Source: Pecten maximus (taxonomy: Eukaryota). Taken from it: a stretch of DNA of 64,000 bases. Within the stretch, counting starts at the first letter, position 1, and each line of letters begins with the position of its first letter. The DNA lies in contig NC_047027.1 of NCBI RefSeq assembly GCF_902652985.1, positions 26,660,001 to 26,724,000 of the forward strand, written 5' to 3'. Below are positions 19,888-63,279 of the stretch, in pieces. The translations under genes and the position numbers were made by a program. The notes beneath the pieces are model-generated. The model was not told the DNA's origin. It was given only the letters and a program-made list of their open reading frames with translations, and made no database searches.

Positions 19888-22800
19888 TGTCACTCGTCAC
19901 TCAGGAAGTGTGTCATTAGTGTGTATGTCACTCGTCTGGCGGGCGATGTGGGTCATTAGTTGGTCTGTCACTCGTCTGGCAGGGGATATGGGTCATAAGT
20001 GGGTCTGCCAACCGTCTGGCGGGGGATATGAGTCATTAGTGGGTCTGTCACTCACCTGGCTGGGATGTGGGTCATTAGTGTGTCGGTCACTCGTCTGGCG
20101 AGGGATGTGAGTCATTAGTGGGTATGTCACTCGTCAGGCGGGGAATATGGGTCATTAGAGGGTATTTCACTCGTCTGGCGAGGGATATGAGTCATTAGTG
20201 TGTCTGTCAATCGTCTGGCGGGGGATGTAGGTCATTAGTGAGTCTGTCACTCGTCTGGTGGTAGATGTGGGTCATCAGTGAGTCTGTAACTCGTCTGGTG
20301 GTAGATATGGGTCATTAGAGGGTATGTCACTCGTCTGGCGGGGGATATGGGTCATTAGTGTCTATGTCACTCGTCAGGCGGGAGATATGGGTCATTAGTG
20401 GGTCTGTCACTCGTTTGGCGGGGATCTATGGTATAAGTGGGTTTGTCACTCGTCAAACAGGGGATTTGTGTCATAAGTGTGTCTGTCATCGTGCGGCGGG
20501 GGATGTGGGTCATTAGTGTGTCTGTCATTCGCCTGGTGAGAGATGTGTGTCATTAGTGTGTCTGTCATTCGCCTGGTGAGAGATGTGGGTCATTAGTGTG
20601 TCTGTCACTCGTCTGGCGGGGAATGTGGGTCATCAGTGAGTCTGTAACTCGTCTGGTGGGGGATGTTTGTCATTAGTGAGTCACTCACTCGTCTGGCGGG
20701 GGATGTGTGTCATTAGTGGGTATGCCACTCGTCAGGCGGGGGATGTGATTCATTAGTGGGTCTGTCACTCGTGCGGCGGGGGATGTGTGTCATTAGTGAG
20801 ACTGTCACTCGTCTGGCGGGGATGTGTGTCATTAGTGGGTCTGTCACTCGTCCGGCGGGGGATGTGGGTCATTAGTGGGTCTGTCACTCGTCTGGCGGGG
20901 ATGTGTGTCATTAGTGTGTCTGTCACTCGTCTGGCGGGGATGTGTGTCATTAGTGAGTCTGTCACTCGTCAGGCGGGGATGTGGGTCATTAGTGGGTCTG
21001 TCACTCGTCTGGCGGGGGATATGGGTCATTAGTGTGTCTGTCACTCGTCTGGCGGGGATGTGTGTCATTAGTGAGTCTGTCACTCGTCTGGTGGGATATG
21101 GGTCATTAGTGGGTCTGTCACTCGTCGGCGGGGGATATGGGTCATTAGTGTGTCTGTCACTCGTCTGGCGGGGATGTGTGTCATTAGTGAGTCTGTCACT
21201 TGTCTGGTGGTAGATATGGGTCATTAGTGTGTCTGTAACTCGTCAGGCGGGAGATATGGGTCATTAGTGTGTCTGTCACTCGTTTGAGGGGGTGATGTGT
21301 GTCATGAGAGTGTCTGTCACTCGTCTGGTGGGGATGTGTGTCATAAGTGGGTCTGTCACTCGTCTGGCGGAGATGTGGGTCATTAGTGGGTATGTCACTG
21401 GTCTGGCGGGTGATGTGTGTCATTAGTGGGTCTGTCACTCGTCTGGCGGGGGATATGAGTCATTAGTGGGTCTGTAAATCGTCTGGCGAGGGATGTGGGT
21501 CATTGTGGGTCTGTCACTCGTCTGGTGGTAGATATGGGTCATTAGTGTGTCTGTCACTCGTCAGGCGGGAGATATGGGTCATTAGTGGGTCTGTCACTCG
21601 TCTGGTGGTAGATATGGGTCATTAGTGTGTCTGTAACTCGTCAGGGCGGGAGATGTGTGTCATTAGTGGGTATGTCACTCGTCTGGCTGGGGATATGAGT
21701 CATTAGTGGGTCTGTAAATCGTCTGGCGAGGGATGTGGGTCATTGTGGGTCTGTCACTCGTCTGGTGGTAGATATGGGTCATTAGTGTGTCTGTCACTCG
21801 TCAGGCGGGAGATATGGGTCATTAGTGGGTATGTCACTCGTCTGGCGGGAGATGTATGGTATTAGTGGGTTTGTCACTCGTCAAACAGGGGATTTGTGTC
21901 ATAAGTGTGTCTGTCTCTTGTGCGGCGGGGGATGTATGTCATTAGTGTGTCTGTAACTCGTCAGGCGGGATATATGGGTCATTAGTGGGTCTGTCACTCG
22001 TCTGAAGGGGGATGTGTGTCATTAGTGTGTCTGTCACTCGTCTGAAGGGGGATGTGTGTCATTTGTGTGTCTGTCACTCGTCTGGCGGTAGATATGGGTC
22101 ATTAGTGTGTCTGTAACTCGTCAGGCGGGAGATATGGGTCATTAGTGTGTCTGTCACTCGTCAGGCGGGATATATGGGTCATTAGTGTGTCTGTCACTCG
22201 TCTGAAGGGGGATGTGTGTCATTAGTGTGTCTGTCACTCGTCTGAAGGGGGATGTGTGTCATTTGTGTGTCTGTCACTCGTCTGGCGGTAGATATGGGTC
22301 ATTAGTGTGTCTGTAACTCGTCAGGCGGGAGATATGGGTCATTAGTGTGTCTGTCACTCGTCTGAAGGGGGATGTGTGTCTGTCACTCGTCTGGTGGGGA
22401 TGTGTGTCATAAGTGGGTCTGTCACTCGTCTGGCGGGGATGTGGGTCATTAGTGTGTCTGTCACTCGTCTGGCGGGGATGTGGGTCATTAGTGTGTCTGT
22501 CACTCGTCTGGCGGGTGATGTGTGTCATTAGTGGGTATGTCACTCGTCTGGCGGGGGATACGAGTCATTAGTTGGTATGTCACTCGTCTGGCGGGGGATA
22601 TGGGTCATAAGTGGGTCTGTCACTCGTTAGGCGGGTGATGTGTGTCATTAGTGGGTACGTCACTCGTCTGGCGGGGGATATGAGTCATTAGTGGGTATGT
22701 CACTAGTCTGGCGGGAGATATGGGTCATTAGTGGGAATGTCACTCGTCTGGCGGGGGATATGAGTCATTAGTGTGTCTGTCAATCGTCTGGCGGGGGATG

Positions 22801-22930
22801 TGGGTCATTAGTGGGTCTGTCACTCGTTTGGCGGGGGATGTGTGTCATTAGTGAGTCTGTCACTCGTCTGGTGGTAGATATGGGTCATTAGTGTGTCTGT
22901 CACTCGTCAGGCGGGAGATATGGGTCATTA
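19888..22930. repeat. 40-bp G-rich minisatellite, ~75 units
   Basis: Consensus GTCACTCGTCTGGCGGGGGATGTGGGTCATTAGTGGGTCT. Ends abruptly at the truncated LTR. Confidence 0.95.
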
Positions 22931-23553
22931 GTAGCAACATCCAGCAAAGTAACACCTAACACTCTCTGGCTTGAACTCCCCCTCGAACTGCAACTAACTC
23001 CTTGCACTCCACGAACTCCCTCTCTGAACTGAACTCCCCCTCCGCTCTCGCTTTCACCCCTTTTATACCAAAACCTAACGGAGCGCTACCGGAGCGCTAC
23101 CGGAGCGCCACCGGAGCGCCGGAGCCCTGCCGGAGCCCTGCCGGAGCGGTGCCCACCTGTACCGGAGCCTTCCGCTCCGGTGACTTAAATGTGTAAATAA
23201 CAATGTACATAACACTTAGAAAACAATTAGCCGCGAGTAAATGTTGACCATGTGTAATATAGATGGGGCATCGCTGGAGCTCCCAGACAGGTCCAGCCAT
23301 TTGTAGTGGATAATAGGGATGAGAGGCGATTAATACCTCTCTGACAGGGGCAATAAACATGAACGGGGGCTGGGCAGACGATTACTGCCACGGGCGTGGT
23401 GAATTGATTACTTCACGGGATATCATCCCGACGTGTCCCTCCCATCTAATTACCAACGATCAACAGATTGACGGGCTATTAAAATTCCTAAAGCAAAGAT
23501 GGTATAACAGAAAATCATAGAAAAATACTTCACTAATATAGAAAAATACTACA
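22931..23553 (-). repeat. 3' LTR (terminal 233 bp missing)
   Basis: Aligns to 26306-26745 + 27627-27792 with ~3 substitutions, a CCGGAGC-repeat copy-number difference and one small indel. Confidence 0.9.
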
Positions 23554-23566
23554 CTTCCCCCTCCTT
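23554..23566 (-). promoter_or_regulatory. Polypurine tract
   Basis: Minus strand AAGGAGGGGGAAG immediately before the LTR start TGTAG. Confidence 0.85.
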
Positions 23567-24776
23567 AGAAACACTGAACCTCCACTGTTCAGCTAACCAC
23601 ATTCTCGCTCGTTCTCTCCAAATGATAATGAGCAAAATATGAAATATGTACAGGATATACATGTTGTCTACATAACACATATCAAAAACTCTATAATTAT
23701 CGCACGAAAAGATGGTCAAAATAATTGACCTGAATAAACAACCACTAAATAAAACTACAGCTACACTAAAACACATCGCATGGGCGTGCGTCGATGTTAA
23801 CTACAATAACACATCGCATGGGCGTGGATACCCGTCGATGTTAACCATAATACTAAACTACATAAATCAGCAAAATGTTTATCTTACGATTCTCATATCT
23901 CGGTATTTATACACACCATTCCAGAACATACTGTGCAATTATTAGGGTAACGCACACAACTTATTTATCAATATCAGGAAAATGTATTTCTCAGTTCATG
24001 AATCTACACACGGCTTTCGTAACATACTATTAAATAACTTACACACACTTGCAAAGGTAAACATCCCGAAGGAACAGTTCAGGAGGTAAATGTTTTTTAC
24101 TGTTACTGTTAATAATCCAAAGAATGTCACAGTTTAATGTTGGTAATAATCCAAGGAATGTCACAGTTTAATTTGATAATCCAGATGAATGTCACAGCTT
24201 AATCTAAATAATCCAGAGTCACAGTTTTCAATATCAATCCAAAGGAAAGTTACGGGAATGTCATAATTGTTACTTATTCCGCATTAAGTAGACAGATCTT
24301 CAAGGTAACATTGTGCAAGGTATTTGTTTATTGAGTTTCCTTCTCCGTCTAACACCTCCCGGTGATTCATATCCACTTTCGGGTTCTGTTTCTTGCTCTT
24401 CATTAAACTTGTGTGGTTGAATACGATTTGATGTATCCCTCATTAGCCGCTCTGTATCGTCAAAATCACTACAAGTTGTTGTTTCTTCAGATACATTTGG
24501 CTCCGGTTTACCGATGTCGGGCAATTTTTGGTACCGGTTCCGTTCATCGGCAGTGTTTGACCCGTCATTGGCTACGGGCTTTTTACGATTTTGTGGGCTA
24601 TGGAGTGTTCGGTAATACCTATTGTACCTTATGTGTTTTTCCGTTTCCCGACAAGGGGATCGGATGTTTTCTCTGGTACAGTTGGTTATCCGACTATCCC
24701 CTCTTCACTTAACCGTGTTTGTCCGGCGATTACCTTGTATATTGGTCGTTTAACTGATTCGATCGGACCAAGACCT

Positions 24777-26021
24777 TCATTGTCCAAAACTACAGTTAAA
24801 TATGTCTCGCCGTGCACCACCATCACGTGCATGGTTCCTCCTCGGCCTTTTCCTCGCACTCCACCTATTCCTGGGGAAACGTGGACTGTGGGCTCTCTGT
24901 TCCACGTCCGAAACAACGGACATATTAGGTCTTATAGTAGACTTGTTATATCTCCGTAGTTCTCTCTCATGAATTCGTATGCATTCCTCGTGCATAGCGT
25001 TGGTAACCGCCTCGGTTATACTTCTAGGTTTGGTTCTCCTAACCGCTAAGCGAAACTCTACAGACTCACTACATTTATCTAGAAAAGCCTGGAGTGTATG
25101 TTCTTCCACCAGATCAGGTTTGTCCCGATAGGCTCGCCGGTATAAATCTTCCAGGGCTTGGCCAAAATCTCGAAGTGATTCTCTCTTATTCCGGCGTCGT
25201 AGTTTGGCTTCAGCCACATACTTTTCTTTCATGGCTTTAAATCCAAATCTGTCATCCATTTTTTCCAACAAACGGTTATAGGTACGTTTGCATGACGGTT
25301 GGAGACCGTATACATATGATGCAGCCTGGCCACGTAACGTGCTCAATAACACACGCCTTTTCTGTTCCTCATTCCACATACTCAGTTCGACCAGATTTTC
25401 AAAATATTCAAGGAATTCTGGCCATATATCTGTACTTTTTCCAGTAAAAGTTCTCCGTATTGGGTATTCATGATGCCAAGCTCTCTGGAACGGAAAGTTA
25501 CTGCATTGCGGGCATAGTTTTGCCTGGCGTCCATCAGCGTAAGGCACGTCATCAAGCCACTTCTCGTCTTCTGAATGATGACTGTCGTTATTAAACTCAT
25601 TGTTTTTTCTTGACAGTCCTCTAATTCTGACAATTAGCACGGCTATGATACACAACACCAGACATAAAAGCCCAATATGTCCTGCTTGCCTAGTACGTCG
25701 CTGCAGGGTGTCGAGATTGAACACAATGATACTGGATACATAATCGTAGCTCCAATACACCAAATGCACAGCTAGTCCAGATAGTAATACTATTAGGGAC
25801 AGTGTGCACATCACGAGCGAACAACAATCGTTTGTTGAGCGATCTCGACCGGACATGGTAACTTCTTTCAGTCCTTTATCATGACGGCTCCTATTCAGAG
25901 GAGTTCTAGCCGCCCGATACCTTCCAACTCTAGGTGTGCTGGTGTCACGTGGATAAAATGGCGATCCATCGAATTTTGAATCCGCCAAATGTTCGTTGAT
26001 GAGAGACTTGTCCTGCTCCAT
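24777..26021 (-). CDS. gag: Gag/capsid protein (414 aa from first ATG) with two N-terminal predicted transmembrane helices
   Basis: Ty3/gypsy capsid pattern TFTGKSTDIWPEFLEYFENLVELSMWNEEQKRRVLLSTLRGQA...LLEKMDDRFG...RRRNKRESLRDFGQALEDLYRRAY. ATG 30 nt after PBS. Hydrophobic segments SLVMCTLSLIVLLSGLAVHLVYW and AGHIGLLCLVLCIIAVLIV. Confidence 0.85.
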   Translation of the reverse strand: MEQDKSLINEHLADSKFDGSPFYPRDTSTPRVGRYRAARTPLNRSRHDKGLKEVTMSGRDRSTNDCCSLVMCTLSLIVLLSGLAVHLVYWSYDYVSSIIVFNLDTLQRRTRQAGHIGLLCLVLCIIAVLIVRIRGLSRKNNEFNNDSHHSEDEKWLDDVPYADGRQAKLCPQCSNFPFQRAWHHEYPIRRTFTGKSTDIWPEFLEYFENLVELSMWNEEQKRRVLLSTLRGQAASYVYGLQPSCKRTYNRLLEKMDDRFGFKAMKEKYVAEAKLRRRNKRESLRDFGQALEDLYRRAYRDKPDLVEEHTLQAFLDKCSESVEFRLAVRRTKPRSITEAVTNAMHEECIRIHERELRRYNKSTIRPNMSVVSDVEQRAHSPRFPRNRWSARKRPRRNHARDGGARRDIFNCSFGQ

Positions 26022-26050
26022 AGTAAAAACTGGTGTGAAATGTCTCAACT

Positions 26051-26070
26051 GAATCCCACCGCTGCCACCA
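26051..26070 (-). promoter_or_regulatory. Primer-binding site, tRNA-Leu
   Basis: Minus TGGTGGCAGCGGTGGGATTC, 2 nt after the LTR end, complementary to the metazoan tRNA-Leu 3' end GAATCCCACCGCTGCCA-CCA. Confidence 0.9.
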
Positions 26071-26072
26071 AT

Positions 26073-27792
26073 TGTAGCGAAAATAGCCGGGGAACTATAT
26101 ACTCAAAGTCCCGCAGCCCTCGGTAGGTGTCCTCGAGGTAGCGTCAGACACCCGCCACAATACCCGAGTTTAGAATTAAATAGTGTGGGTCGTCGAGAAA
26201 CACAATTCAACACCGTCGTAAAGTTTCAGTCTATGTATTCAGCAACATCAGCAGTGTACAGGGTATATATAAATGGCAACACCGCTTTCGCTTTCATCAG
26301 CATACGTAGCAACATCCAGCAAAGTAACACCTAACACTCTCTGGCTTGAACTCCCCCTCGAACTGCAACTAACTCCTTGCACTCCACGAACTCCCTCTCT
26401 GAACTGAACTCCCCCTCCGCTCTCGCTTTCACCCCTTTTATACCAAAACCTAACGGAGCGCTACCGGAGCGCTACCGGAGCGCCGGAGCCCTGCCGGAGC
26501 GGTGCCCACCTGTACCGGAGCCTTCCGCTCCGGTGACTTAAATGTGTAAATAACAATGTACATAACACTTAGAAAACAATTAGCCGCGAGTAAATGTTGA
26601 CCATGTGTAATATAGATGGGGCATCGCTGGAGCTCCCAGACAGGTCCTGCCATTTGTAGTGGGTAATAGGGATGAGAGGCGATTAATACCTCTCTGACAG
26701 GGGCAATAAACATGAACGGGGGCTGGGCAGACGATTACTGCCACGTATGGCAAGCCGTTTTAACATTTAATCCCATTTCCTCTTAAGGGGATGTTTTTTC
26801 ACTTAAGTGAAAAAGGAATTTCACTTAAGTGAAAAAAACATAATGCAAATAATTTATTCACCTTAAGGTGAAAAGAATTTCACTTAAGTGAAATTCTTTT
26901 TCACTTAAGTGAAATAAAACATAATGCAAATAAATGTTAAAATCCCTAAAGACAAAAAGTATTTCACTTAAGTGAAAAAAAATTATGTGCAGACATAATG
27001 CAAAATACTTGTCCCTTAAGTGAAATTCTTTTCATCTTAAGGTAAATAAAACTGACCAAATGTCCATAAAGTCACTCTGTCCTCCTATCCACCCCATGGT
27101 ATAATGGAATGAACCCCTTGGACCTGTCAACTAAGATACAGCGTGAGTAAACTTTAACTTTGATACGTTCTTATCACTTATCATAAGGGAAATAAATAAA
27201 ACATAGATTTAATGGAATTAAAACATAAGTGAAAGTAAATCATATGGGAAATAGTATTGATTTTACTAACAACAAATGAAGTAGAGAAAAGGTCTCGAAT
27301 TGGTCAGAAATTAAACACCCAATGCTTGGTCAATAGATGGACTAGTCCATATCTGATTCATGAGAGTGGGTGTCCGATTTACTCAACAGCAGCATTTGCA
27401 TTATGTTTTATTTCACTTAAGTGAAAAAGATTTTCCCTTAAGATGAATAAGATTTATTTCACTTAAGTGAAATTCTTTTTCACTTAAGTGAAATAAAACA
27501 TAATGCAAAAAAAAAGTCTTTTAACCTTAAGGTAAAAAGTATTTCACTTAAGTGAAATAAATTTGAAGCATATTTTACCTTAAGAGGAAATGGGATTAAA
27601 TGTTAAAACGGCTTGCCATAGCCACGGGCGTGGTGAATTGATTACTTCACGGGATATCATCCCGACGTGTCCCTCCCATCTAATTACCAACGGTCAACAG
27701 ATTGACGGGCTATTAAAATTCCTAAAGCAAAGATGGTATAACAGAAAGTAGAAACATAGAAAAATACTTCACTAATATAGAAAAATACTACA
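26073..27792 (-). repeat. 5' LTR (839 bp without insert)
   Basis: TGTAG..CTACA termini. Minus-strand TATA (GGTATAAAAGGGG) near 26432-26443. Confidence 0.9.
26746..27620. mobile_element. 875-bp MITE, IS3EU-like
   Basis: Perfect 43-bp TIRs TATGGCAAGCCGTTTTAACATTTAATCCCATTTCCTCTTAAGG. 6-bp TSD GCCACG (26740-45, 27621-26), confirmed by the empty site in the other LTR. Many subterminal TTCACTTAAGTGAA palindromes. TAY..RTA ends with a 6-bp TSD fit IS3EU. Confidence 0.88.
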
Positions 27793-38350: not shown

Positions 38351-38454
38351 AATTCATCTTTAAGTACAACTAACAAACGATCAGTGTGATGGAACTAAAA
38401 CAGATTCATGAAGAAACATGATTTGTAAAATTGGTGTATTATTGATTCTTGTAG

Positions 38455-39980
38455 GTCTGACGTTATATGCCAAGTCCCAGATAGACGCCCAGCTAGCTTC
38501 ATCATCTGAGGAGCGTGAGGCAGGGTCTCTTGTTTCTGGCCTACCCACCTACACTCTTGAAGATGTTGGCAAGCATAAGACAAAGGACACCAGGATCTGG
38601 ATGACCTACAAAAATGGAGTTTATGATGTTACAGAATTTGTGGCAAACCACCCTGGTGGGAGTAAGATCCTGCTGGCAGCCGGTGGGGCCATGGACCCGT
38701 TCTGGAACATGTATGCAGTGCACAAGAACAAAGAAGTATTTTCAATGCTTGAAGAACTTCGTATAGGAAACATCACTGAAATTCCAAAAGAGGAGGAACG
38801 GGATGCAAGCAATCCATATGCTAATGATCCAAAACGACACCCTGCCTTACGGCCAAGTTCCTCAACTCCTTTTAATGCTGAGCCTCCTCTTCAGCTCCTC
38901 CCAGACAATTTTCTTACACCTAATGACCTCTTCTTTGTACGTAATCACCTTCCAGTTCCAGATGTAGATCCAAAGACATACAAGTTAGAAGTTGGAATTG
39001 ACGGAGCCTCTCGAAAGAAGAATATAAATCTCAATGATCTAAAGAATCGATTTCAGAAGAAGTCTGTGGCCTCCATTGTGCAATGTGCTGGTAATCGTCG
39101 TAGTGAAATGGTGAAGATCAAATCAGTTAAGGGACTAAACTGGGGCGCAGCTGCCATAAGTAATGCAGAATGGGCTGGAGTATGTCTCGATGATGTCCTG
39201 AAGTATTCTGGGATTGATATAGACACTGTCGATTGTGATCACATTATTTTTGACGGCTTGGATCAAGACCCAACAGGTTCAACCTATGGAGCGTCTATCC
39301 CGATTGAACTAGCTCGTCGTCTGAAGAAGGACATAATTGTAGCATACGAAATGAATGGAGAAGATATTCCTCGGGACCATGGCTACCCAGTACGAATCGT
39401 TCTTCCTGGAATTGTTGGAGCGAGACAGGTAAAATGGTTGTGCAAAATAACACTGTCAAAAAAGGAGAGTGATTGCCATTGGCAACAGAAGGATTACAAA
39501 GGGTTCCACGCGTCAATCGACTGGCATAATGTTGATTTCAGTACAGTGCCAGCCATTCAGGAACTTCCTGTCAACAGCGCCATCTGTGAGCCAGTTAATG
39601 GATCGAGTCTAGAAGAAGGTTCAACTGATGTGACAGTCAAAGGCTATGCGTGGAGCGGAGGTGGTCGTGGCATCGTCAGAGTCGACGTGACAACAGACGG
39701 GGGAAAGACATGGCATTCTGCAGAACTAAAACACCCAGACCAGCCATTATACAAGACATATGCATGGACACTATGGGAAGCGACAGTCCCACTGCCTGCA
39801 GACAAGAAGGATGTTGAGATTCAATGCAAGGCTGTTGACTCTTCCTATAATGTACAGCCAGATAACGTCGATGGAATCTGGAATCTAAGGGGTGTTCTTA
39901 GTAATGCTTGGTTCAAGGTCAACGTTCAAGTCCCAGGAGAGAAGGAAGAGGCAAAAAAGAAAAAGACATCTTGGTGGTAA
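38455..39980 (+). CDS. SUOX: Sulfite oxidase, main exon (cytochrome b5 haem + Mo-cofactor + dimerisation domains); full protein 581 aa
   Basis: GVYDVTEFVANHPGG (b5); FNAEPP..FFVRNHLPVP; QCAGNRR (Mo-ligating Cys); DHGYPVR; VKGYAWSGGGRGIVRVDV; IWNLRGVLSNAW. Acceptor TTCTTGTAG ending 38454. Confidence 0.97.
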
Positions 39981-55394: not shown

Positions 55395-58300
55395 TGTAGG
55401 CGTCGAATACGCCTCGAAATCGTTCCGGCTATCGTAATAATAAATGAGGTCAATTCCATCTTCCTGGCTTCATCTGTGTTTATTATCTTTGACATCAATT
55501 CAACTACATACATGTACAGTACAGGTGTAGTGACTCAATGATAGTTCTACGTAGATAGATTGACTGTAACGAAAAGAAACAGTACTTATTAGACTAATTA
55601 ACTAAGCAACAGTTACTATTATGCCTTATCATCTATAACACATGACGAGTTTGATCTGTAGATGAGATCGAGACAACTCGCCCTCTACTATTCAGTATAC
55701 AATACACATGACTTGACAAGACTAGGACATTTCGGCCCAGAATGAATTTAACCGAACCTGATAAATATAGCAAAATACAATACTATTACGATACTATTAC
55801 TCTTACACATTTATAGCGAGTTAAACAGCAATGAAACAGCAATGTATCAATCATATCATAGCATACAAATACAGCAGAAATCAAGTGATAGACTAGAATG
55901 CACGAGGGACTTGTCGTCTGTCCACGGTTCACTGACATATTTATATATTGGCCGAATTATCCAAAATGACATTATAACATGATGACATGGATTCCTAAAC
56001 AAGCATAAATCATATTCAAATCATTCAACAGTAATTAGTTACCGTATCGTATCCTACGATAGTCCGAACGAATCTTCTCATACTCAAAACATGTGCTGCG
56101 CTTGGATAACGCTATCCCATAATATTCGTCTATACTAAAACCGGAAACCGGATAACCGTATTTTCCGGAATCTTAACAAAATTACCACAAATGAAACTAA
56201 ACAATAAATTCAACATAAAACTAACATTTAGGCCGTAACATACCGGCCCCTTAATCGAGGCTTCAACCGAGATTATCAATTCGCAAAAACGGCCTAATAA
56301 CCATCAAACACATCAATTAAATCATTATGCTTAATCATAAAATAATTACAATTACAAAAGTACATCTGACATTTCAGTTCGAAATGTCCTTTCACTCAAG
56401 CGTTCACCGTATCCATTACTCAATGTCTGACTCGAGCAAGAGCACGAGTTTGGTCACTGGGCGCGTTAACACATTGGAAGGGGTCTTAACCTTCACGAAT
56501 CGCACAATGTCATGTTTGTCTTTCACAACTTCCTGAATCCTACCGGTTATCCACGCATGCCTAGGTGTACTATCAGCGATCAGCACAAGATCTCCAGTCT
56601 GCAAATTGCGTCGTTTCTTCATCCATTTCTGGCGTCCTTGCAGAAGCGGTAAGTATTCCTTGGTCCACCTATTCCAGAAAATATCTGAAAGGTACTGTAT
56701 CTGTCTCCACCTCCTTCTGGCATAGTTATCCGTGGCGACAAATGTTCCAGGTGGGAAATACTCTCCAGGCTGAAGCAATAGCAGATGGTTTGGGGTCAAA
56801 ACCCGTAGGTCAGTTACGTTATCCGATGCTTCAGTTAACGGGCGTCCATTTAAGATAGCCTCTACCTCACAAAAGACTGTCTGAAGTCCTTCGTCATCCA
56901 GTTTCGCATTCTGCTCATGCATAACAGAGTACAACACCTGTCTCACAGACCTAATGAGTCTTTCCCAGACTCCGCCGAAGTGAGAACCGGAGGGAGGATT
57001 GAATTCCCACTGAATGCTACTCTGCAACATGTTATCACGAATTTTGTCTGTGTTCCATTTCTGAATATTTTCCTTCATTTCTCGTTGAGCACCGATAAGG
57101 TTGGTTCCGTTATCCGATCTAATAAATACAGGTTTTCCTCTGCGAGCGATAAATCGTCGAATGGAGTTGATGCAAGAATCTGTATCGAGCGACGCAGCAA
57201 CTTCTAAATGGACCGCACGAGTCACAAGACAGGTAAACAATACCCCATATCGCTTTACCACACTCCTTCCACGTTTCAGTTCAAAGGGTCCGAAGAAGTC
57301 CATCCCAGTTCTGCTGAAAGGAGGCTGATCAGCTGCGAGTCGCTCTGCGGGTAAGTTTGCCATCTTTTGCTCAACACATGGAGCTCTGTATTTCCTACAA
57401 GTCACACATTTGGAAAGAATAGATTTCACCAGAGTGCGAGCACCAACAATCCAATATTTTTCTCGAATGAATGCAAGAACAGTGTTCTTTCCTAAGTGAC
57501 CACATGATCTGTGGGCATCATCCACAACGAGTCTCGATACGACAGGTTCCCTAGGCAACACCACGGGGTGTTTTGCATCATACGAAATTTCAGCTCTTTC
57601 AAGACGACCTCCTACGCGAATGACACCATCTTTAACAAAGGGCTCCATCTTGAATAATTTCGAAGTCTTCTTGAGTTTTCGCGACTGAACACCATTGCCC
57701 TGATGAAGGATCCTGCTTTCGGCTGCGAAGTACTTTCGTTGCTCATACTTAATCAACGCGGCTTCAGCTCGTTCCAGAATATCCACAGACAGGCACGCTG
57801 TACGAAAGTTTTTCTTTCCTTTGAGAAGTCTATCCTGTCTCTCTTTCGACAATGTTAACTTTATTTTCTGGTCGCGTTTCACAGGATCAGATTCTGAACT
57901 GCTGATGTCCTGTTTTATCTGCCGGCTCCTCTCAACAGCTCCCTGCAGGTTGTCCATAGCTCTCATAAGCCATCCAGTAGCCCTCCTAAGCTTATTAAAG
58001 TTGGAGTAATAGTCGAAAAGATTTTCGACACCACTGTTTGTGTCTAAAACAACTGATGTAGCGCACGCAGTCGTCCTTATTTCAGGATCATTCTCTTTAT
58101 CCGTGATCTTAACATCCTTTTCCACAACGGGCCATTCACGTTCGGATTTCCAGAGGAACATTGGTCCACGAGTCCACGAGTCAGGCAACTTCGAAATGCT
58201 CGTTCCTCTTGATGCAACATCAGCTGGATTCTCCTTAGTGTTGATGTAATACCAGTCATCTTCCGACGTAGCTTCGTGGATAAGAGCAATGCGGTTAGCT

Positions 58301-61300
58301 ACGAACGTGTGGAAGCGCAAATTCTTGTTTGCGATATACCTTAAGACTGAAGTGCTGTCGGTCCAAAAGAAGAATCGATCTATGTTGTAATTCAGCTGTT
58401 CTGTCACCATCCTGACCAACTTCACTAGAGAAGAGGCAGCTGTAAGTTCCATCCGGGGTATAGTCACTGCCTTCAGTGGTGCGACTCTCGCCTTCCCGAA
58501 CAAGAACGAGCAGTGGATCTTTCCAGTGACATCAACGAGTCGAAGATAGAATACCATTCCATATCCAATGTCACTTGCATCTGCGAAACCATGAAGTTGA
58601 CAGGAGGTTACCTTGCCGAGGTTTTTCCCTTTGTAACACCGATCAATGGTAACATGCTCTAGTTCAGGTAGCTGAAGCAGCCAATCGGTCCAGTCCTTCA
58701 GATCTTTTCCTGTGATCTCCTCATCCCATCCCTTACCATCCCCACAAAGTCTTTGCAGAATTGACTTGGCCTTAAGAACAAACGGGGATGCAATTCCTAA
58801 AGGATCGTACACTGAGCTGGTTACTGATAGAATACCTCTTCTAGTAACAGGCTTGTCTTTCATCTGAATTTGGAATCCAAGGGAGTCATTCTCCATGAAC
58901 CAATAAACTCCGAGAGCTCTTTCGATAGGTGGCTTACTATCCAGACTCCGCAACTTGACTTCTTGGGCACGATCACCCTCTGGAATAGATTCCACAACCA
59001 CATCACTGTTACTCGTCCATTTGGTAAGTCGGAATCCTCCGGATTTACACATTTGAGTCACATCATGTATAAGACTAATCGCCTTCTTCTCGGTAGCAAC
59101 GGAGGTCAGACAGTCATCGACATACATATTTCTTTTCAGTGTGTCCTGAACTTCTTGGGGAAACCGTTCTTGACTGTCCTCTGCAGTTTTCTGAAGAGCA
59201 AAGTTGCAAACACTGGGAGATGATGAGGCTCCAAACAGGTGAACCGTCATCCTGTAGCTCCTTGGCTCATTCGCAGTATTCCCGTTGGGCCACCAGTAAA
59301 ATCGCAGATAGTCTCTTTCATTTACTGGGACCTTCACCTGATAGAACATTGCTTCAATGTCTCCAATGACAGCCACTGGTTCCTCCCGGAATCGCATCAA
59401 CACACCAAGAAGATTGTTTGTAAGGTCAGGTCCCTGGAGTAAGTTGTCGTTAAGGGAGACACCTTGATATCGCGCAGAGCAATCAAACACCACTCGAATC
59501 TTGTTCTTTTTCTTGTGGTATACACCATGATGAGGAATGTACCAGACCTTTCCTTTGTCAAATCCCACAGGTGCTGGTTCCGCATGACCTTTCTCCAACA
59601 GTGTTTCCATGAAGGTAGTGTAATCTTCTTTGAACTTGGGATCTGCCTTGAACCTGTTCTCAATGCTGCGTAATCTCCGTTTAGCCATTACCGAGTTATC
59701 AGGCAAAATAGTGACCATGTTACGAAATGGCAACGAAACGCAGTAATGTTCTCCATCCTTATAAATAGAGTTTTCAGCCATATCCAAAAATTGTTTGTCC
59801 TCCCTCGAGTTTTCTTTTCTATCGTCAATAAGACGCTCAGGGAAATCGAGGTTCATAGATCTCTTAACCATGTCTTCGATGTCTTCTCCAGACTCATCCT
59901 GAATGTGAACTCTGTTGACTTGTATAGTACCGCTTTCTCGAAGAACATTCCAGACCACCCATCCAAGCTTAGTTCTTGTAGCATGTGGTGATCCACTAGG
60001 GCCTGCAAGTATCTCAATAGGCGAGTAGGCATCTGGTACGTTGCTGCCAATCATCAAACCTATCTCACAGTTAGGCTCAGCTAGTGAAACCTTTGCTAAG
60101 TGTTCCCACCTTGACACCTCTGCTTGTGTTGGGATGTGCTTCTTAGACACGGGCATTTTCTCCTTCGTGAACACTCGCGGAAGATCAATAGCATTTTCCG
60201 AGTCAATGTCACTTACTTGCAGTCCACTGATGGAAAATGTGTTCATGATAAATGGCTCACCCATTGTACTCAGTGTAAGCTGTGTCTTCTTACCTCTAGC
60301 TCCAAGCTGTTTCATAACTGTCTCGGTGCAAAACGAAGCGCTACTACCTGTATCCAAGAATGCGTATGTCTCTATACTATGTGGTTTATCACGCAAGCGA
60401 ATTCTAACTGGGACTATCGCCATGGCACAAGACAAATCCCCCTTTTGATCTTCTTTTGCGATAGCATAACCAGTACTGGCATTCGATACACTAACAACTG
60501 ACGAGCTTTCTTCGTTGTGTAAGATAGATGGATGACTTTTATTGCATATGCCGCACTTGGAACGATTACGGCATCTCTTCGACAAGTGGCCTTTCTTGAG
60601 ACAGCCAAAGCATAATCCCTTTTCTTTAATGAAGTTGACTCTTTCGTTCATAGGTTTGGCAGTTATCTTTTTGCAAGTATCCAGAGAATGGGAAGTAGAA
60701 TCACAGAAGAAACACCTATAATTCGGGGCTGGAGGAGGTACGGTGTCACTGGTGCTCTTAGGTATAGAATCTGTAACAATCTCTGGAACTGCATTGCTGG
60801 AACGTGCAATCTTTGTCTGAGTCTTTGGTCTTGAAGTCCCAGTGGCATTACTTCCATACGTAGGGTCGTTGACTTTCTTAGCCTCTGCCTTCACAAACTT
60901 CATGAAATCTTGGAACCGAACCTTCCTCTTTGCTTCCTTGTACTTGTATACTTGGTTCCTCCATTTATCATGCAGATAGAAGGGTAGTTTGAGCATTAAT
61001 TTCTTAATATTGTCCGAGTAGTCAAGAACGCCATTTGATTCTGTGCCAACTGCATTATCACACTCTACAAGAAACAAAGAGAAGTCATCGAGTGCCTTCG
61101 GGTCTCCAGGACGAATGGTGGGCCAGTCTAATGCTTTCTTGATGAAAGCTGTCGCTATAACTTCCTCATCGCCATAGCGATCCTCCAGCTGACTCATGGC
61201 TGCCTTATAAGCCTTGTCGCCGTTAAGATGGCTGAATCCTGACACCACTTTATGTGCATCTCCGAATGTAAGTTGTTCAAGGTAGTTCATCCTTTCATCG

Positions 61301-63279
61301 TCATCATCAGTGTTGATTACAACTTTCGAGTGAAATTGACGAATAAATCTGCGATATTCTAGAGGATCTCCACTAAACTTCTTTACCTCTGCCACAGGTT
61401 TTCTTAAATGTTGAACTACCGACTGAACTACGGTTTGTGAATGGGACGAATCAACATATTGTTCAGGTAGTGTTCTCGATGACACTTCTGCTACACCAGT
61501 CGTATGCGGTCTAGGTCTATCATATAGGACTGGAGGGGGACTTGCACAAACACTTTCATCTGTAAATCGTACAGGCAATGGTCGCGGCTTAGGGGAGGTA
61601 AATCGCGGTTGCTCGAACGCAAGAGCCTGGTCAACTGAAGCATTAAGATTTTCATTTGAGTCGTACTTGTCGAGTACTCCGCTTCTCGCTTGAGCGACAG
61701 CTATACCGGTATCAAGTTCCAGCTCTTCCTCTTTGAGCTTTAGCGACAACTTAGCTAACTCAATTTCATGTTTCTTTGATAACGCTAGTTTCCTTGTCTC
61801 TAATTCTACCCTAACCTGTTCTTCTTTGATACGTTTCAGAGACGCGTATGAACTGGCAGTACTGGAAACGGATACATTATCATCGGCTTCTGGATCAGTT
61901 TTCTTTATAATGCCTTGGTCTATTTTCTCGCCAGCCACACTCAACTCTTCGGCTACAGATAAAGTGTTCTTACTCAATGTCATAGCACTCCGCGAGGAAA
62001 TGTAGTTCTCAATCCAACTTTTGAATTCTTTCGCAGAACCATAATTCTCATTGAACCTTTGAGCAAACTCATCATGCTCATGGGAAGAGACTTGGGGCAG
62101 CAAAATGTCATACAGTTCCAAATATTTTTCGAACTCACTCATCCACATACTGTATTTTTTACGCACAATATCCAAAGGTTCGTCATCTTCAGTGGCTATT
62201 TCTTTTAAATATCTTTCTGACCTACATAGAGACTTGTATTTTTTGTCAAGCTGTTCCATATTGTACTGCATGCCTTTCTCACTAAATTTTCTGGCCCGTC
62301 CAGAATCTGAATTTAAGTCATACATGTAACCTTCTACAGCTTCTCTGTCTCTAGTAGCCATCTTGTTCCAGATCTGTATCACTTAAAAGCTTGAAGATCA
62401 TACCTCTTACATCTAGGAAGATACGTCAATGAATGTAGGCGTCGAATACGCCTCGAAATCGTTCCGGCTATCGTAATAATAAATGAGGTCAATTCCATCT
62501 TCCTGGCTTCATCTGTGTTTATTATCTTTGACATCAATTCAACTACATACATGTACAGTACAGGTGTAGTGACTCAATGATAGTTCTACGTAGATAGATT
62601 GACTGTAACGAAAAGAAACAGTACTTATTAGACTAATTAACTAAGCAACAGTTACTATTATGCCTTATCATCTATAACACATGACGAGTTTGATCTGTAG
62701 ATGAGATCGAGACAACTCGCCCTCTACTATTCAGTATACAATACACATGACTTGACAAGACTAGGACATTTCGGCCCAGAATGAATTTAACCGAACCTGA
62801 TAAATATAGCAAAATACAATACTATTACGATACTATTACTCTTACACATTTATAGCGAGTTAAACAGCAATGAAACAGCAATGTATCAATCATATCATAG
62901 CATACAAATACAGCAGAAATCAAGTGATAGACTAGAATGCACGAGGGACTTGTCGTCTGTCCACGGTTCACTGACATATTTATATATTGGCCGAATTATC
63001 CAAAATGACATTATAACATGATGACATGGATTCCTAAACAAGCATAAATCATATTCAAATCATTCAACAGTAATTAGTTACCGTATCGTATCCTACGATA
63101 GTCCGAACGAATCTTCTCATACTCAAAACATGTGCTGCGCTTGGATAACGCTATCCCATAATATTCGTCTATACTAAAACCGGAAACCGGATAACCGTAT
63201 TTTCCGGAATCTTAACAAAATTACCACAAATGAAACTAAACAATAAATTCAACATAAAACTAACATTTAGGCCGTAACA
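55395..63279 (-). mobile_element. Full-length, apparently intact BEL/Pao LTR retrotransposon (7885 bp)
   Basis: LTRs 55395-56240 and 62434-63279, both 846 bp, TG..CA, no differences seen by eye. TSD TGCAC (55390-94, 63280-84). PPT-like AGGGGCCGGTA at 56241-56251 (minus). Single uninterrupted ORF. Confidence 0.98.
56416..62361 (-). CDS. BEL/Pao Gag-Pol polyprotein (1981 aa from ATG)
   Basis: Gag KFSGDPLEY; three Cys/His knuckles (CFFC..H..C, CFGC..GH..C, CGIC..HP..LH); protease FLDTGS; RT DIEAMFYQV / YVDD; RNase H HGFADAS; integrase H..GH..CVTC, GMDFFGP, SDNGTN, GVWERLI. Confidence 0.97.
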   Translation of the reverse strand: MATRDREAVEGYMYDLNSDSGRARKFSEKGMQYNMEQLDKKYKSLCRSERYLKEIATEDDEPLDIVRKKYSMWMSEFEKYLELYDILLPQVSSHEHDEFAQRFNENYGSAKEFKSWIENYISSRSAMTLSKNTLSVAEELSVAGEKIDQGIIKKTDPEADDNVSVSSTASSYASLKRIKEEQVRVELETRKLALSKKHEIELAKLSLKLKEEELELDTGIAVAQARSGVLDKYDSNENLNASVDQALAFEQPRFTSPKPRPLPVRFTDESVCASPPPVLYDRPRPHTTGVAEVSSRTLPEQYVDSSHSQTVVQSVVQHLRKPVAEVKKFSGDPLEYRRFIRQFHSKVVINTDDDDERMNYLEQLTFGDAHKVVSGFSHLNGDKAYKAAMSQLEDRYGDEEVIATAFIKKALDWPTIRPGDPKALDDFSLFLVECDNAVGTESNGVLDYSDNIKKLMLKLPFYLHDKWRNQVYKYKEAKRKVRFQDFMKFVKAEAKKVNDPTYGSNATGTSRPKTQTKIARSSNAVPEIVTDSIPKSTSDTVPPPAPNYRCFFCDSTSHSLDTCKKITAKPMNERVNFIKEKGLCFGCLKKGHLSKRCRNRSKCGICNKSHPSILHNEESSSVVSVSNASTGYAIAKEDQKGDLSCAMAIVPVRIRLRDKPHSIETYAFLDTGSSASFCTETVMKQLGARGKKTQLTLSTMGEPFIMNTFSISGLQVSDIDSENAIDLPRVFTKEKMPVSKKHIPTQAEVSRWEHLAKVSLAEPNCEIGLMIGSNVPDAYSPIEILAGPSGSPHATRTKLGWVVWNVLRESGTIQVNRVHIQDESGEDIEDMVKRSMNLDFPERLIDDRKENSREDKQFLDMAENSIYKDGEHYCVSLPFRNMVTILPDNSVMAKRRLRSIENRFKADPKFKEDYTTFMETLLEKGHAEPAPVGFDKGKVWYIPHHGVYHKKKNKIRVVFDCSARYQGVSLNDNLLQGPDLTNNLLGVLMRFREEPVAVIGDIEAMFYQVKVPVNERDYLRFYWWPNGNTANEPRSYRMTVHLFGASSSPSVCNFALQKTAEDSQERFPQEVQDTLKRNMYVDDCLTSVATEKKAISLIHDVTQMCKSGGFRLTKWTSNSDVVVESIPEGDRAQEVKLRSLDSKPPIERALGVYWFMENDSLGFQIQMKDKPVTRRGILSVTSSVYDPLGIASPFVLKAKSILQRLCGDGKGWDEEITGKDLKDWTDWLLQLPELEHVTIDRCYKGKNLGKVTSCQLHGFADASDIGYGMVFYLRLVDVTGKIHCSFLFGKARVAPLKAVTIPRMELTAASSLVKLVRMVTEQLNYNIDRFFFWTDSTSVLRYIANKNLRFHTFVANRIALIHEATSEDDWYYINTKENPADVASRGTSISKLPDSWTRGPMFLWKSEREWPVVEKDVKITDKENDPEIRTTACATSVVLDTNSGVENLFDYYSNFNKLRRATGWLMRAMDNLQGAVERSRQIKQDISSSESDPVKRDQKIKLTLSKERQDRLLKGKKNFRTACLSVDILERAEAALIKYEQRKYFAAESRILHQGNGVQSRKLKKTSKLFKMEPFVKDGVIRVGGRLERAEISYDAKHPVVLPREPVVSRLVVDDAHRSCGHLGKNTVLAFIREKYWIVGARTLVKSILSKCVTCRKYRAPCVEQKMANLPAERLAADQPPFSRTGMDFFGPFELKRGRSVVKRYGVLFTCLVTRAVHLEVAASLDTDSCINSIRRFIARRGKPVFIRSDNGTNLIGAQREMKENIQKWNTDKIRDNMLQSSIQWEFNPPSGSHFGGVWERLIRSVRQVLYSVMHEQNAKLDDEGLQTVFCEVEAILNGRPLTEASDNVTDLRVLTPNHLLLLQPGEYFPPGTFVATDNYARRRWRQIQYLSDIFWNRWTKEYLPLLQGRQKWMKKRRNLQTGDLVLIADSTPRHAWITGRIQEVVKDKHDIVRFVKVKTPSNVLTRPVTKLVLLLESDIE

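Follow-up and report, generated by a model that had tools for sequence, protein, structure and literature searches.

Retrotransposon Gag proteins are generally held to be soluble or to bind membranes through lipid marks. Murine leukaemia virus (MLV) makes, beside the soluble Gag that starts at a downstream AUG, small amounts of a single-pass form, glyco-Gag, whose Gag part lies in the lumen, and the particles of mouse intracisternal A-particle (IAP) elements in the endoplasmic reticulum (ER) depend on a hydrophobic Gag N-terminus. IAP elements have been described as lacking Env and as forming, from Gag alone, particles that build up in the ER (PMC12776083). Elements like the one reported here in having long terminal repeats (LTRs) and gag, no enzymes, and repeated insertion are represented by plant TR-GAG (PMC13570524) and zebrafish BHIKHARI (PMC12006353), and chimeric families arising through template switching are described in sugar beet (PMC13570524). 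Elements with gag only are already known, and so is recombination between non-autonomous elements. The present element was located at 22931..27792, on the minus strand, of a 64,000-nucleotide (64-kb) stretch of the Pecten maximus genome (NC_047027.1, positions 26,660,001 to 26,724,000), hereafter the window. It is a young pol-less Ty3/gypsy LTR element encoding a single 414-aa Gag, and its interest lies less in this copy than in the lineage to which it belongs, marked by a hydrophobic hairpin ahead of the capsid. No description of a transmembrane (TM) Ty3/gypsy Gag was found in the literature searched, and the word "transmembrane" did not occur in the main text of PMC6238403 and PMC8556966; supplements, Repbase and subscription journals lay outside this search, and the families may be catalogued there.

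The reading we favour, with a probability of about 0.6, is that the element is a pol-less satellite of a Ty3/gypsy lineage with a hairpin-bearing Gag, that the hairpin replaces the matrix by anchoring Gag in an internal membrane, and that the enzymes of a pol-carrying relative copy its RNA in shared particles. The anchoring membrane is probably that of the ER. Gag would be inserted co-translationally, with its N and C ends both in the cytosol, and capsids would assemble at the cytosolic face, the partner making Gag-Pol by a -1 frameshift. The partner's protease would then cut the linker of 24–161 residues and free the capsid, template switching among co-packaged RNAs would give mosaics, and integration would take place inside the same cell.

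The two hydrophobic helices that a first-pass annotation, made from the letters alone, had placed before a capsid fold were recovered in the window Gag by Kyte-Doolittle (KD) hydropathy in 19-residue windows. AlphaFold, run on a 64-row alignment, predicted two helices (residues 63–100 and 106–145) at a predicted local distance difference test score (pLDDT) of 65–86, then a linker predicted to be disordered and a capsid modelled with confidence. Basic residues stand directly after helix 2. Foldseek analysis of the capsid returned the PNMA2 capsid 8uyo as the top match (E 5.8e-5), followed by Arc, dArc1 and then Ty3, and these Arc/PNMA2 matches reflect the common Ty3/gypsy capsid fold. A sequence search of the PDB gave no match below E 0.49, and the ESM Atlas search turned up nothing beyond generic retrotransposon Gag clusters, below 0.9. 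The window Gag was correctly described as having no CCHC knuckle; it also has no N-myristoylation motif, the open reading frame (ORF) starting with MEQ, and no Met in the stretch from helix 2 to the capsid. Its frame stops at codon 414, while seven other pol-less copies read on into a pol remnant; the short Arg-rich C-terminus, rightly noted in this Gag, is therefore a break private to this copy and not a family trait. The RRTR, Cys-Cys and CPQC..HH motifs can be read in this sequence, but the lineage as a whole does not conserve them, CPxC being confined to pol-less copies.

A protein search yielded 68 homologues, those carrying an organism name being Mytilus gene models. Among the search homologues together with seven Gags from this genome, 71 had at least 130 residues ahead of the capsid, and in 61 of these 71 two hydrophobic helices (KD>=1.6) were present. 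After the best 150 matches of a representative search were added, 143 sequences covered the capsid, and a tree was built from the 97 whose N-terminus was long (46 were excluded). In one capsid clade of 85 rows (SH-aLRT 99), two helices were present in 73 rows, one in 8 and none in 4, while none of the 12 rows outside it had any helix. The two-helix Gags formed 23 clusters at <70% capsid identity. Across these clusters two uncharged stretches of 19–23 residues (KD 1.6–3.3) were found at conserved spacing with aromatic and basic flanking residues, separated by a loop of 14–37 residues that carried NxS/T in 2/23. The content of K+R per residue was lower in the loop (0.095) than in the flanks of 12 aa (0.17 and 0.18), which lends modest support to a topology with both ends in the cytosol. 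As in the window Gag, the linker between hairpin and capsid had no Met in 7/23 clusters, and a soluble Gag from an inner start is therefore not general. A search for longer fused forms yielded a single case, the Mytilus gene model P0092, which holds hairpin and pol domains together.

The hairpin was present in four pol-carrying families of the same genome (auto1 and the families of L048, L055 and L062) and absent from five distant Gags. It is therefore a feature of the autonomous lineage, older than the loss of pol, and the earlier idea that the membrane anchor was tied to the pol-less state had to be given up. That annotation had also held that its proposal would fall if other copies carried pol and lacked the helices; other copies do carry pol, yet the helices are kept.

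Genome searches scored only the best candidates, and all counts are consequently lower bounds. They revealed an autonomous partner sharing LTR and primer-binding site (PBS) with the window element, such as the first-pass annotation had suggested looking for: auto1 (L035, L036, L071; G000:C5:19.32 Mb) has the LTR family and PBS of the window element and a two-helix Gag. The LTRs of L071 and L035 are 90–97% identical to those of the window, and the U5 part of the window 5' LTR is 97% identical to the relative at G000:C5:19.32 Mb. In auto1, pol is a separate 1568-aa frame overlapping gag, in the order protease, reverse transcriptase, RNase H, Macro, integrase (PR-RT-RH-Macro-IN); the element has a 4-bp target site duplication (TSD), a broken frame at the end of integrase and an interrupted 3' LTR. 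A TTTAAAC heptamer lies in the -1 gag-pol overlap of both auto1 and a second partner, auto2. The order PR-RT-RH-IN was found in L035 and L055. A Macro domain (Pfam PF01661, E ~1e-28) stands between RNase H and integrase in the Pol of L035:5164-9867 and L048:4994-8764, while the L055 family has none. Two of the three further hairpin families (L048, L055, L062) carry a CCHC knuckle. A C2H2 zinc-finger ORF of 260–290 aa follows pol (L035:3910-4695, L072:8061-8834, L066:1320-2201), both in hairpin-bearing elements and in one distant hairpin-less gypsy element. No env-like ORF was detected in the partners examined; what follows pol in L035 is a C2H2 finger ORF that has no hydrophobic segment, and an errantivirus-like, env-bearing gypsy was rejected on this ground.

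Comparison of the window element with auto1 demonstrated 94–99% identity through the LTR, leader and hairpin. Codons 159 to ~300, however, are 84–93% identical to a second pol-less family and only 70–77% to either partner, and the 5' end of L040, a member of that second family, is 92–99% identical to auto2. At informative quartet sites the window groups with auto1 by 92:1 through codon 158 and with L040 by 37:7 in codons 159–290 (P=3e-25), returning to auto1 in the pol spacer (35:4). The window capsid N-half was found at >=85% identity in 13 loci, all pol-less (a lower bound). On these identities the two pol-less families are mosaics, each with the ends and hairpin of its own pol-carrying partner and both with a capsid N-half in common. 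The usual cause of such mosaics is template switching between co-packaged RNAs, and the pattern fits co-packaging with helper RNA. Shared ends and mosaic structure make it likely that helper enzymes mobilise the pol-less copies. The pol-less form is an old recombining lineage, not a one-off deletion.

Fourteen pol-less loci, at about 13 sites, were recovered, five in the window's family and nine in the second; the flanks of L041 equal those of L040, of which it is probably an allele. In a search with the window U5, 40 of 113 candidates were scored, and all were 89–100% identical. All five loci of the window's family miss the same ~5.3 kb relative to auto1, homology resuming right after the zinc-finger ORF, and 8/9 loci of the second family resume at the equivalent point of auto2. 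As the first-pass annotation had anticipated, gag-only copies with their own duplications exist: exact 4-bp TSDs, the Ty3/gypsy length also seen at the partner, flank L031, L039, L040 and L042, with a mismatched one at L038. LTR identity is 97–100% at L038, L039, L040 and L042. By these marks the two families inserted independently. A domesticated Gag gene of the Arc/PNMA type was rejected, the loci being multicopy, LTR-flanked and mostly broken.

Selection was assessed on hairpin and capsid separately. For the hairpin region, dN/dS between auto1 and auto2 was 0.49 (P=0.012), and between auto3 and auto4 pS was 0.85 versus a pN of 0.33 (P=3e-11). The capsid N-half gave 0.09 between auto1 and auto2, and the capsid C-half 0.20–0.22 between the two pol-less families at dS ~0.9 (P <=5e-8).

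Several observations weigh against the favoured reading. Purifying selection on the TM region, seen in the deeper comparisons, is missing between the window and auto1, where 1 synonymous change in the hairpin stands against 6 replacements (P=0.68). The capsid N-half of the window and L040 differs by 4 synonymous versus 13 replacement changes (dN/dS ~0.9), and the purifying signal may partly stem from unsampled pol-carrying ancestors. An unbroken gag through the capsid was seen in only 3/14 pol-less loci, so that the satellites may be able to do without a Gag of their own. Mosaics could also result from gene conversion among copies in the genome. Membrane spanning is a prediction from hydropathy and from helices modelled at pLDDT 65–86; the charge bias is modest, and the loop of the window Gag carries 3 Arg. 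The profile that collected the distant Gags contained the hairpin, which biases it toward TM-bearing matches, and the capsid tree was a quick search with a midpoint root and some long branches.

It is conceivable, although unlikely, that the hairpin enables capsids to bud through a membrane and exit the cell in an envelope, or that it joins membranes by itself, giving the whole lineage an Env-free route from cell to cell. An integral anchor would keep capsids at the membrane, the hairpin is retained across a deep capsid clade, and PNMA2 and Arc are the nearest capsid folds; Env-less LTR elements can cross cells through a small TM protein, according to 10.1101/2025.03.14.642691. Yet these capsid matches are to the fold common to Ty3/gypsy, and late motifs of the ESCRT type occurred in 6/61 two-TM Gags versus 13.1 +/- 3.3 in shuffled sequences, below chance. 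The furin site proposed as a feature was likewise abandoned, R-X-X-R being present in the loop of 2/61 two-TM Gags and 1/23 clusters. The loop is short and only weakly amphipathic (15/23 clusters above the shuffle mean, combined z 2.2; z>1.64 in 3/23), the window Gag has two helices instead of one and no myristoylation motif, and the third ORF of the partners examined is a zinc finger and not an env. The budding and spread suggested at first pass are unsupported. A broader version is an outside chance in our estimate: the hairpin lineage, in bivalves and other hosts, would wrap its particles in membrane for export without a myristoylated matrix or Env, and long-lived pol-less satellites, distinguished by a capsid N-half of their own, would ride along, swapping ends and hairpin with an active helper.

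We regard it as quite unlikely that the pol-less copies are passengers whose RNA is packaged by helper Gag while their own Gag decays, the hairpin mattering only in pol-carrying elements. The broken gag of 11/14 loci, the relaxed capsid N-half between pol-less families and the unconstrained hairpin relative to auto1 speak for it, as does the frame of the window copy, which no longer continues into the pol remnant. Insertions are expected to acquire breaks regardless, however, and the constrained capsid C-half between pol-less families points the other way. Of the 13 pol-less loci in which both gag and pol remnant were detected, 10 have them in a single frame and not in the -1 arrangement of the partners, and L040, with 100% identical LTRs, keeps a 595-codon open frame. 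That the helices form a monotopic or soluble hairpin (for lipid-droplet targeting or as an oligomerisation bundle) and do not span the bilayer is very improbable, for although a turn of 5 residues joins predicted helices of 38–40 residues, many homologues have a semi-hydrophobic loop and the positive-inside signal is modest, the two uncharged stretches recur with their spacing and flanks in 23 divergent clusters.

The coordinates of the features are collected below.

Table. Features of the pol-less LTR element and its surroundings (window positions)
Feature	Position	Strand	Remarks
5' LTR (TG..CA)	26073..27792	-	~840 bp without the inserted terminal inverted repeat (TIR) element
Non-coding TIR element, 875 bp, inside 5' LTR	26746..27620	.	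43-bp perfect TIRs, TA..TA ends, 6-bp TSD
PBS, tRNA-Leu, 20 nt	26051..26070	-	complement = end of tRNA-Leu genes in same genome
gag ORF, 414 aa	24777..26021	-	N-terminus (disordered), hairpin of hydrophobic helices, linker, capsid and a basic tail; stops sooner than in sister copies
Hydrophobic helix 1, predicted membrane-spanning	25752..25823	-	residues ~67-90; KD 2.4 peak at residue 67; inside predicted helix 63-100
Hydrophobic helix 2, predicted membrane-spanning	25629..25685	-	residues ~113-131; KD 2.9 peak at residue 113; inside predicted helix 106-145
Shared capsid N-half segment	25150..25545	-	in both pol-less families and in no pol-carrying copy found; left recombination breakpoint near 25533
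Two-lobed Ty3/gypsy capsid domain	24939..25469	-	residues ~185-361; pLDDT >90 for 191-360
Broken remnant, pre-protease start of pol	24420..24790	-	80-90% identity to pol-carrying partner
Junction piece, RNase H/Macro-integrase linker-like	24300..24400	-	short; common to both pol-less families
Polypurine tract (PPT), 13 purines	23554..23566	-	from sequence
3' LTR	22931..23553	-	~230 bp gone from its 3' end
40-bp tandem satellite, 76 copies	19904..22932	.	adjoins truncated 3' LTR at 22931; outside element

The LTR pair described at first pass is real, while its count of about 3 substitutions in ~600 bp was corrected to 4 over 601 aligned bp, alongside two indels (5 and 22 bp). The missing ~230 bp of the 3' LTR is absent from the rest of the window, and the TSD of this copy is untestable because that LTR end is lost against the 40-bp satellite. 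The 20-nt tRNA-Leu PBS and the PPT held up: the PBS complement occurs 25 times in the genome, and ARAGORN identified tRNA-Leu at 3/4 loci scanned. The interior of 2.5 kb has, as stated before, one ORF and no Pfam match to PR, RT, RH or IN; it is nevertheless not pol-free, containing the pre-protease remnant and the linker-like piece. The latter matches the other 13 pol-less loci at 76–96% and aligns with L045 over 132 bp at 69.5%. The frame at 24931-24686, considered as a decayed protease motif, was rejected, having no Pfam match and aligning to the partner's gag tail and pol spacer. Four upstream ATGs were seen in the presumed 5' leader ahead of the gag start (26315-26248, minus strand) and may restrict gag translation. 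Among 24 listed sequencing runs, 16 contain part of the stretch, none half its words, and one is recorded as RNA; in four runs, short contigs reached a depth of up to ~12 over the gag ORF with mixed variants, which were not used as evidence of transcription.

The 875-bp TIR element is classed as IS3EU-like by its ends and TSD length only, with PMC10045372 as the yardstick, and this miniature element contains internal palindromic subrepeats. Elsewhere in the window, an unbroken 1988-codon ORF at 56416-62382 (minus strand) is presumably a BEL/Pao-like Gag-Pol by its motifs, and a 522-codon frame at 38412-39980 (plus strand) is one we take to be sulfite oxidase-like in a single exon. Beyond the window, L031:7168-7750 (element orientation) holds a partial third LTR past the 3' LTR, and the same 4-bp TSD separates and flanks it. 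L051, L052, L053, L057 and L063 form a non-autonomous subfamily with a CCHC-bearing hairpin Gag and PR-RT-RH but no integrase match; its LTRs are 99.4–99.9% identical with 4-bp TSDs, and the pol frame of L051 continues into a C2H2 finger. L067:1-6430 is apparently a gag-only LTR element with a hairpin-less 509-codon Gag frame and only a short pol trace; its repeat is at least 1453 bp at 99.6% identity and its interior is 3.5 kb.

If a clade of integral-membrane Gags is confirmed, it would represent another answer to the questions of where capsids assemble and how envelopment begins without Env, and one short natural ORF makes the idea directly testable. The helper-satellite pair also offers a clear case, in an animal, of a satellite that retains gag and recombines with two different helpers.

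Compared with described systems, the lineage agrees with Ty3/gypsy elements (Metaviridae with separate gag and pol) in its TG..CA LTRs, tRNA PBS, PPT, 4-bp TSD, Arc/PNMA/Ty3-type capsid fold and the partner pol order PR-RT-RH-IN. It differs in a Gag that opens with a two-helix hydrophobic hairpin, in the Macro domain between RNase H and integrase of auto1 and auto2, and in the C2H2 ORF after pol. Unlike the situation with TR-GAG and BHIKHARI, the partner is here identified in the same genome, the Gag has a hairpin and mostly reads into a pol remnant, and two families have a common capsid segment with ends of different partners. The sORF2 proteins of the Drosophila MDG1 group and the FAST fusogens are similar, according to 10.1101/2025.03.14.642691, in being linked to Env-less gypsy-type elements with a small TM module and a basic patch past the helix. 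There, however, sORF2 is a separate single-pass protein of 60–210 aa, N-out/C-in and often myristoylated; membership was rejected, the two helices here being fused in frame to the capsid of an ORF starting with MEQ. MLV glyco-Gag resembles the window Gag in its membrane-spanning N-terminal part, but the window Gag has no Met between helices and capsid and its capsid is predicted to be cytosolic; a glyco-Gag type was rejected on the Met-less linkers. IAP is a betaretrovirus-derived endogenous retrovirus, whereas the present element is Ty3/gypsy with an internal two-helix hairpin from residue ~65–95, so that IAP may serve as the nearest working analogy, not as a homologue.

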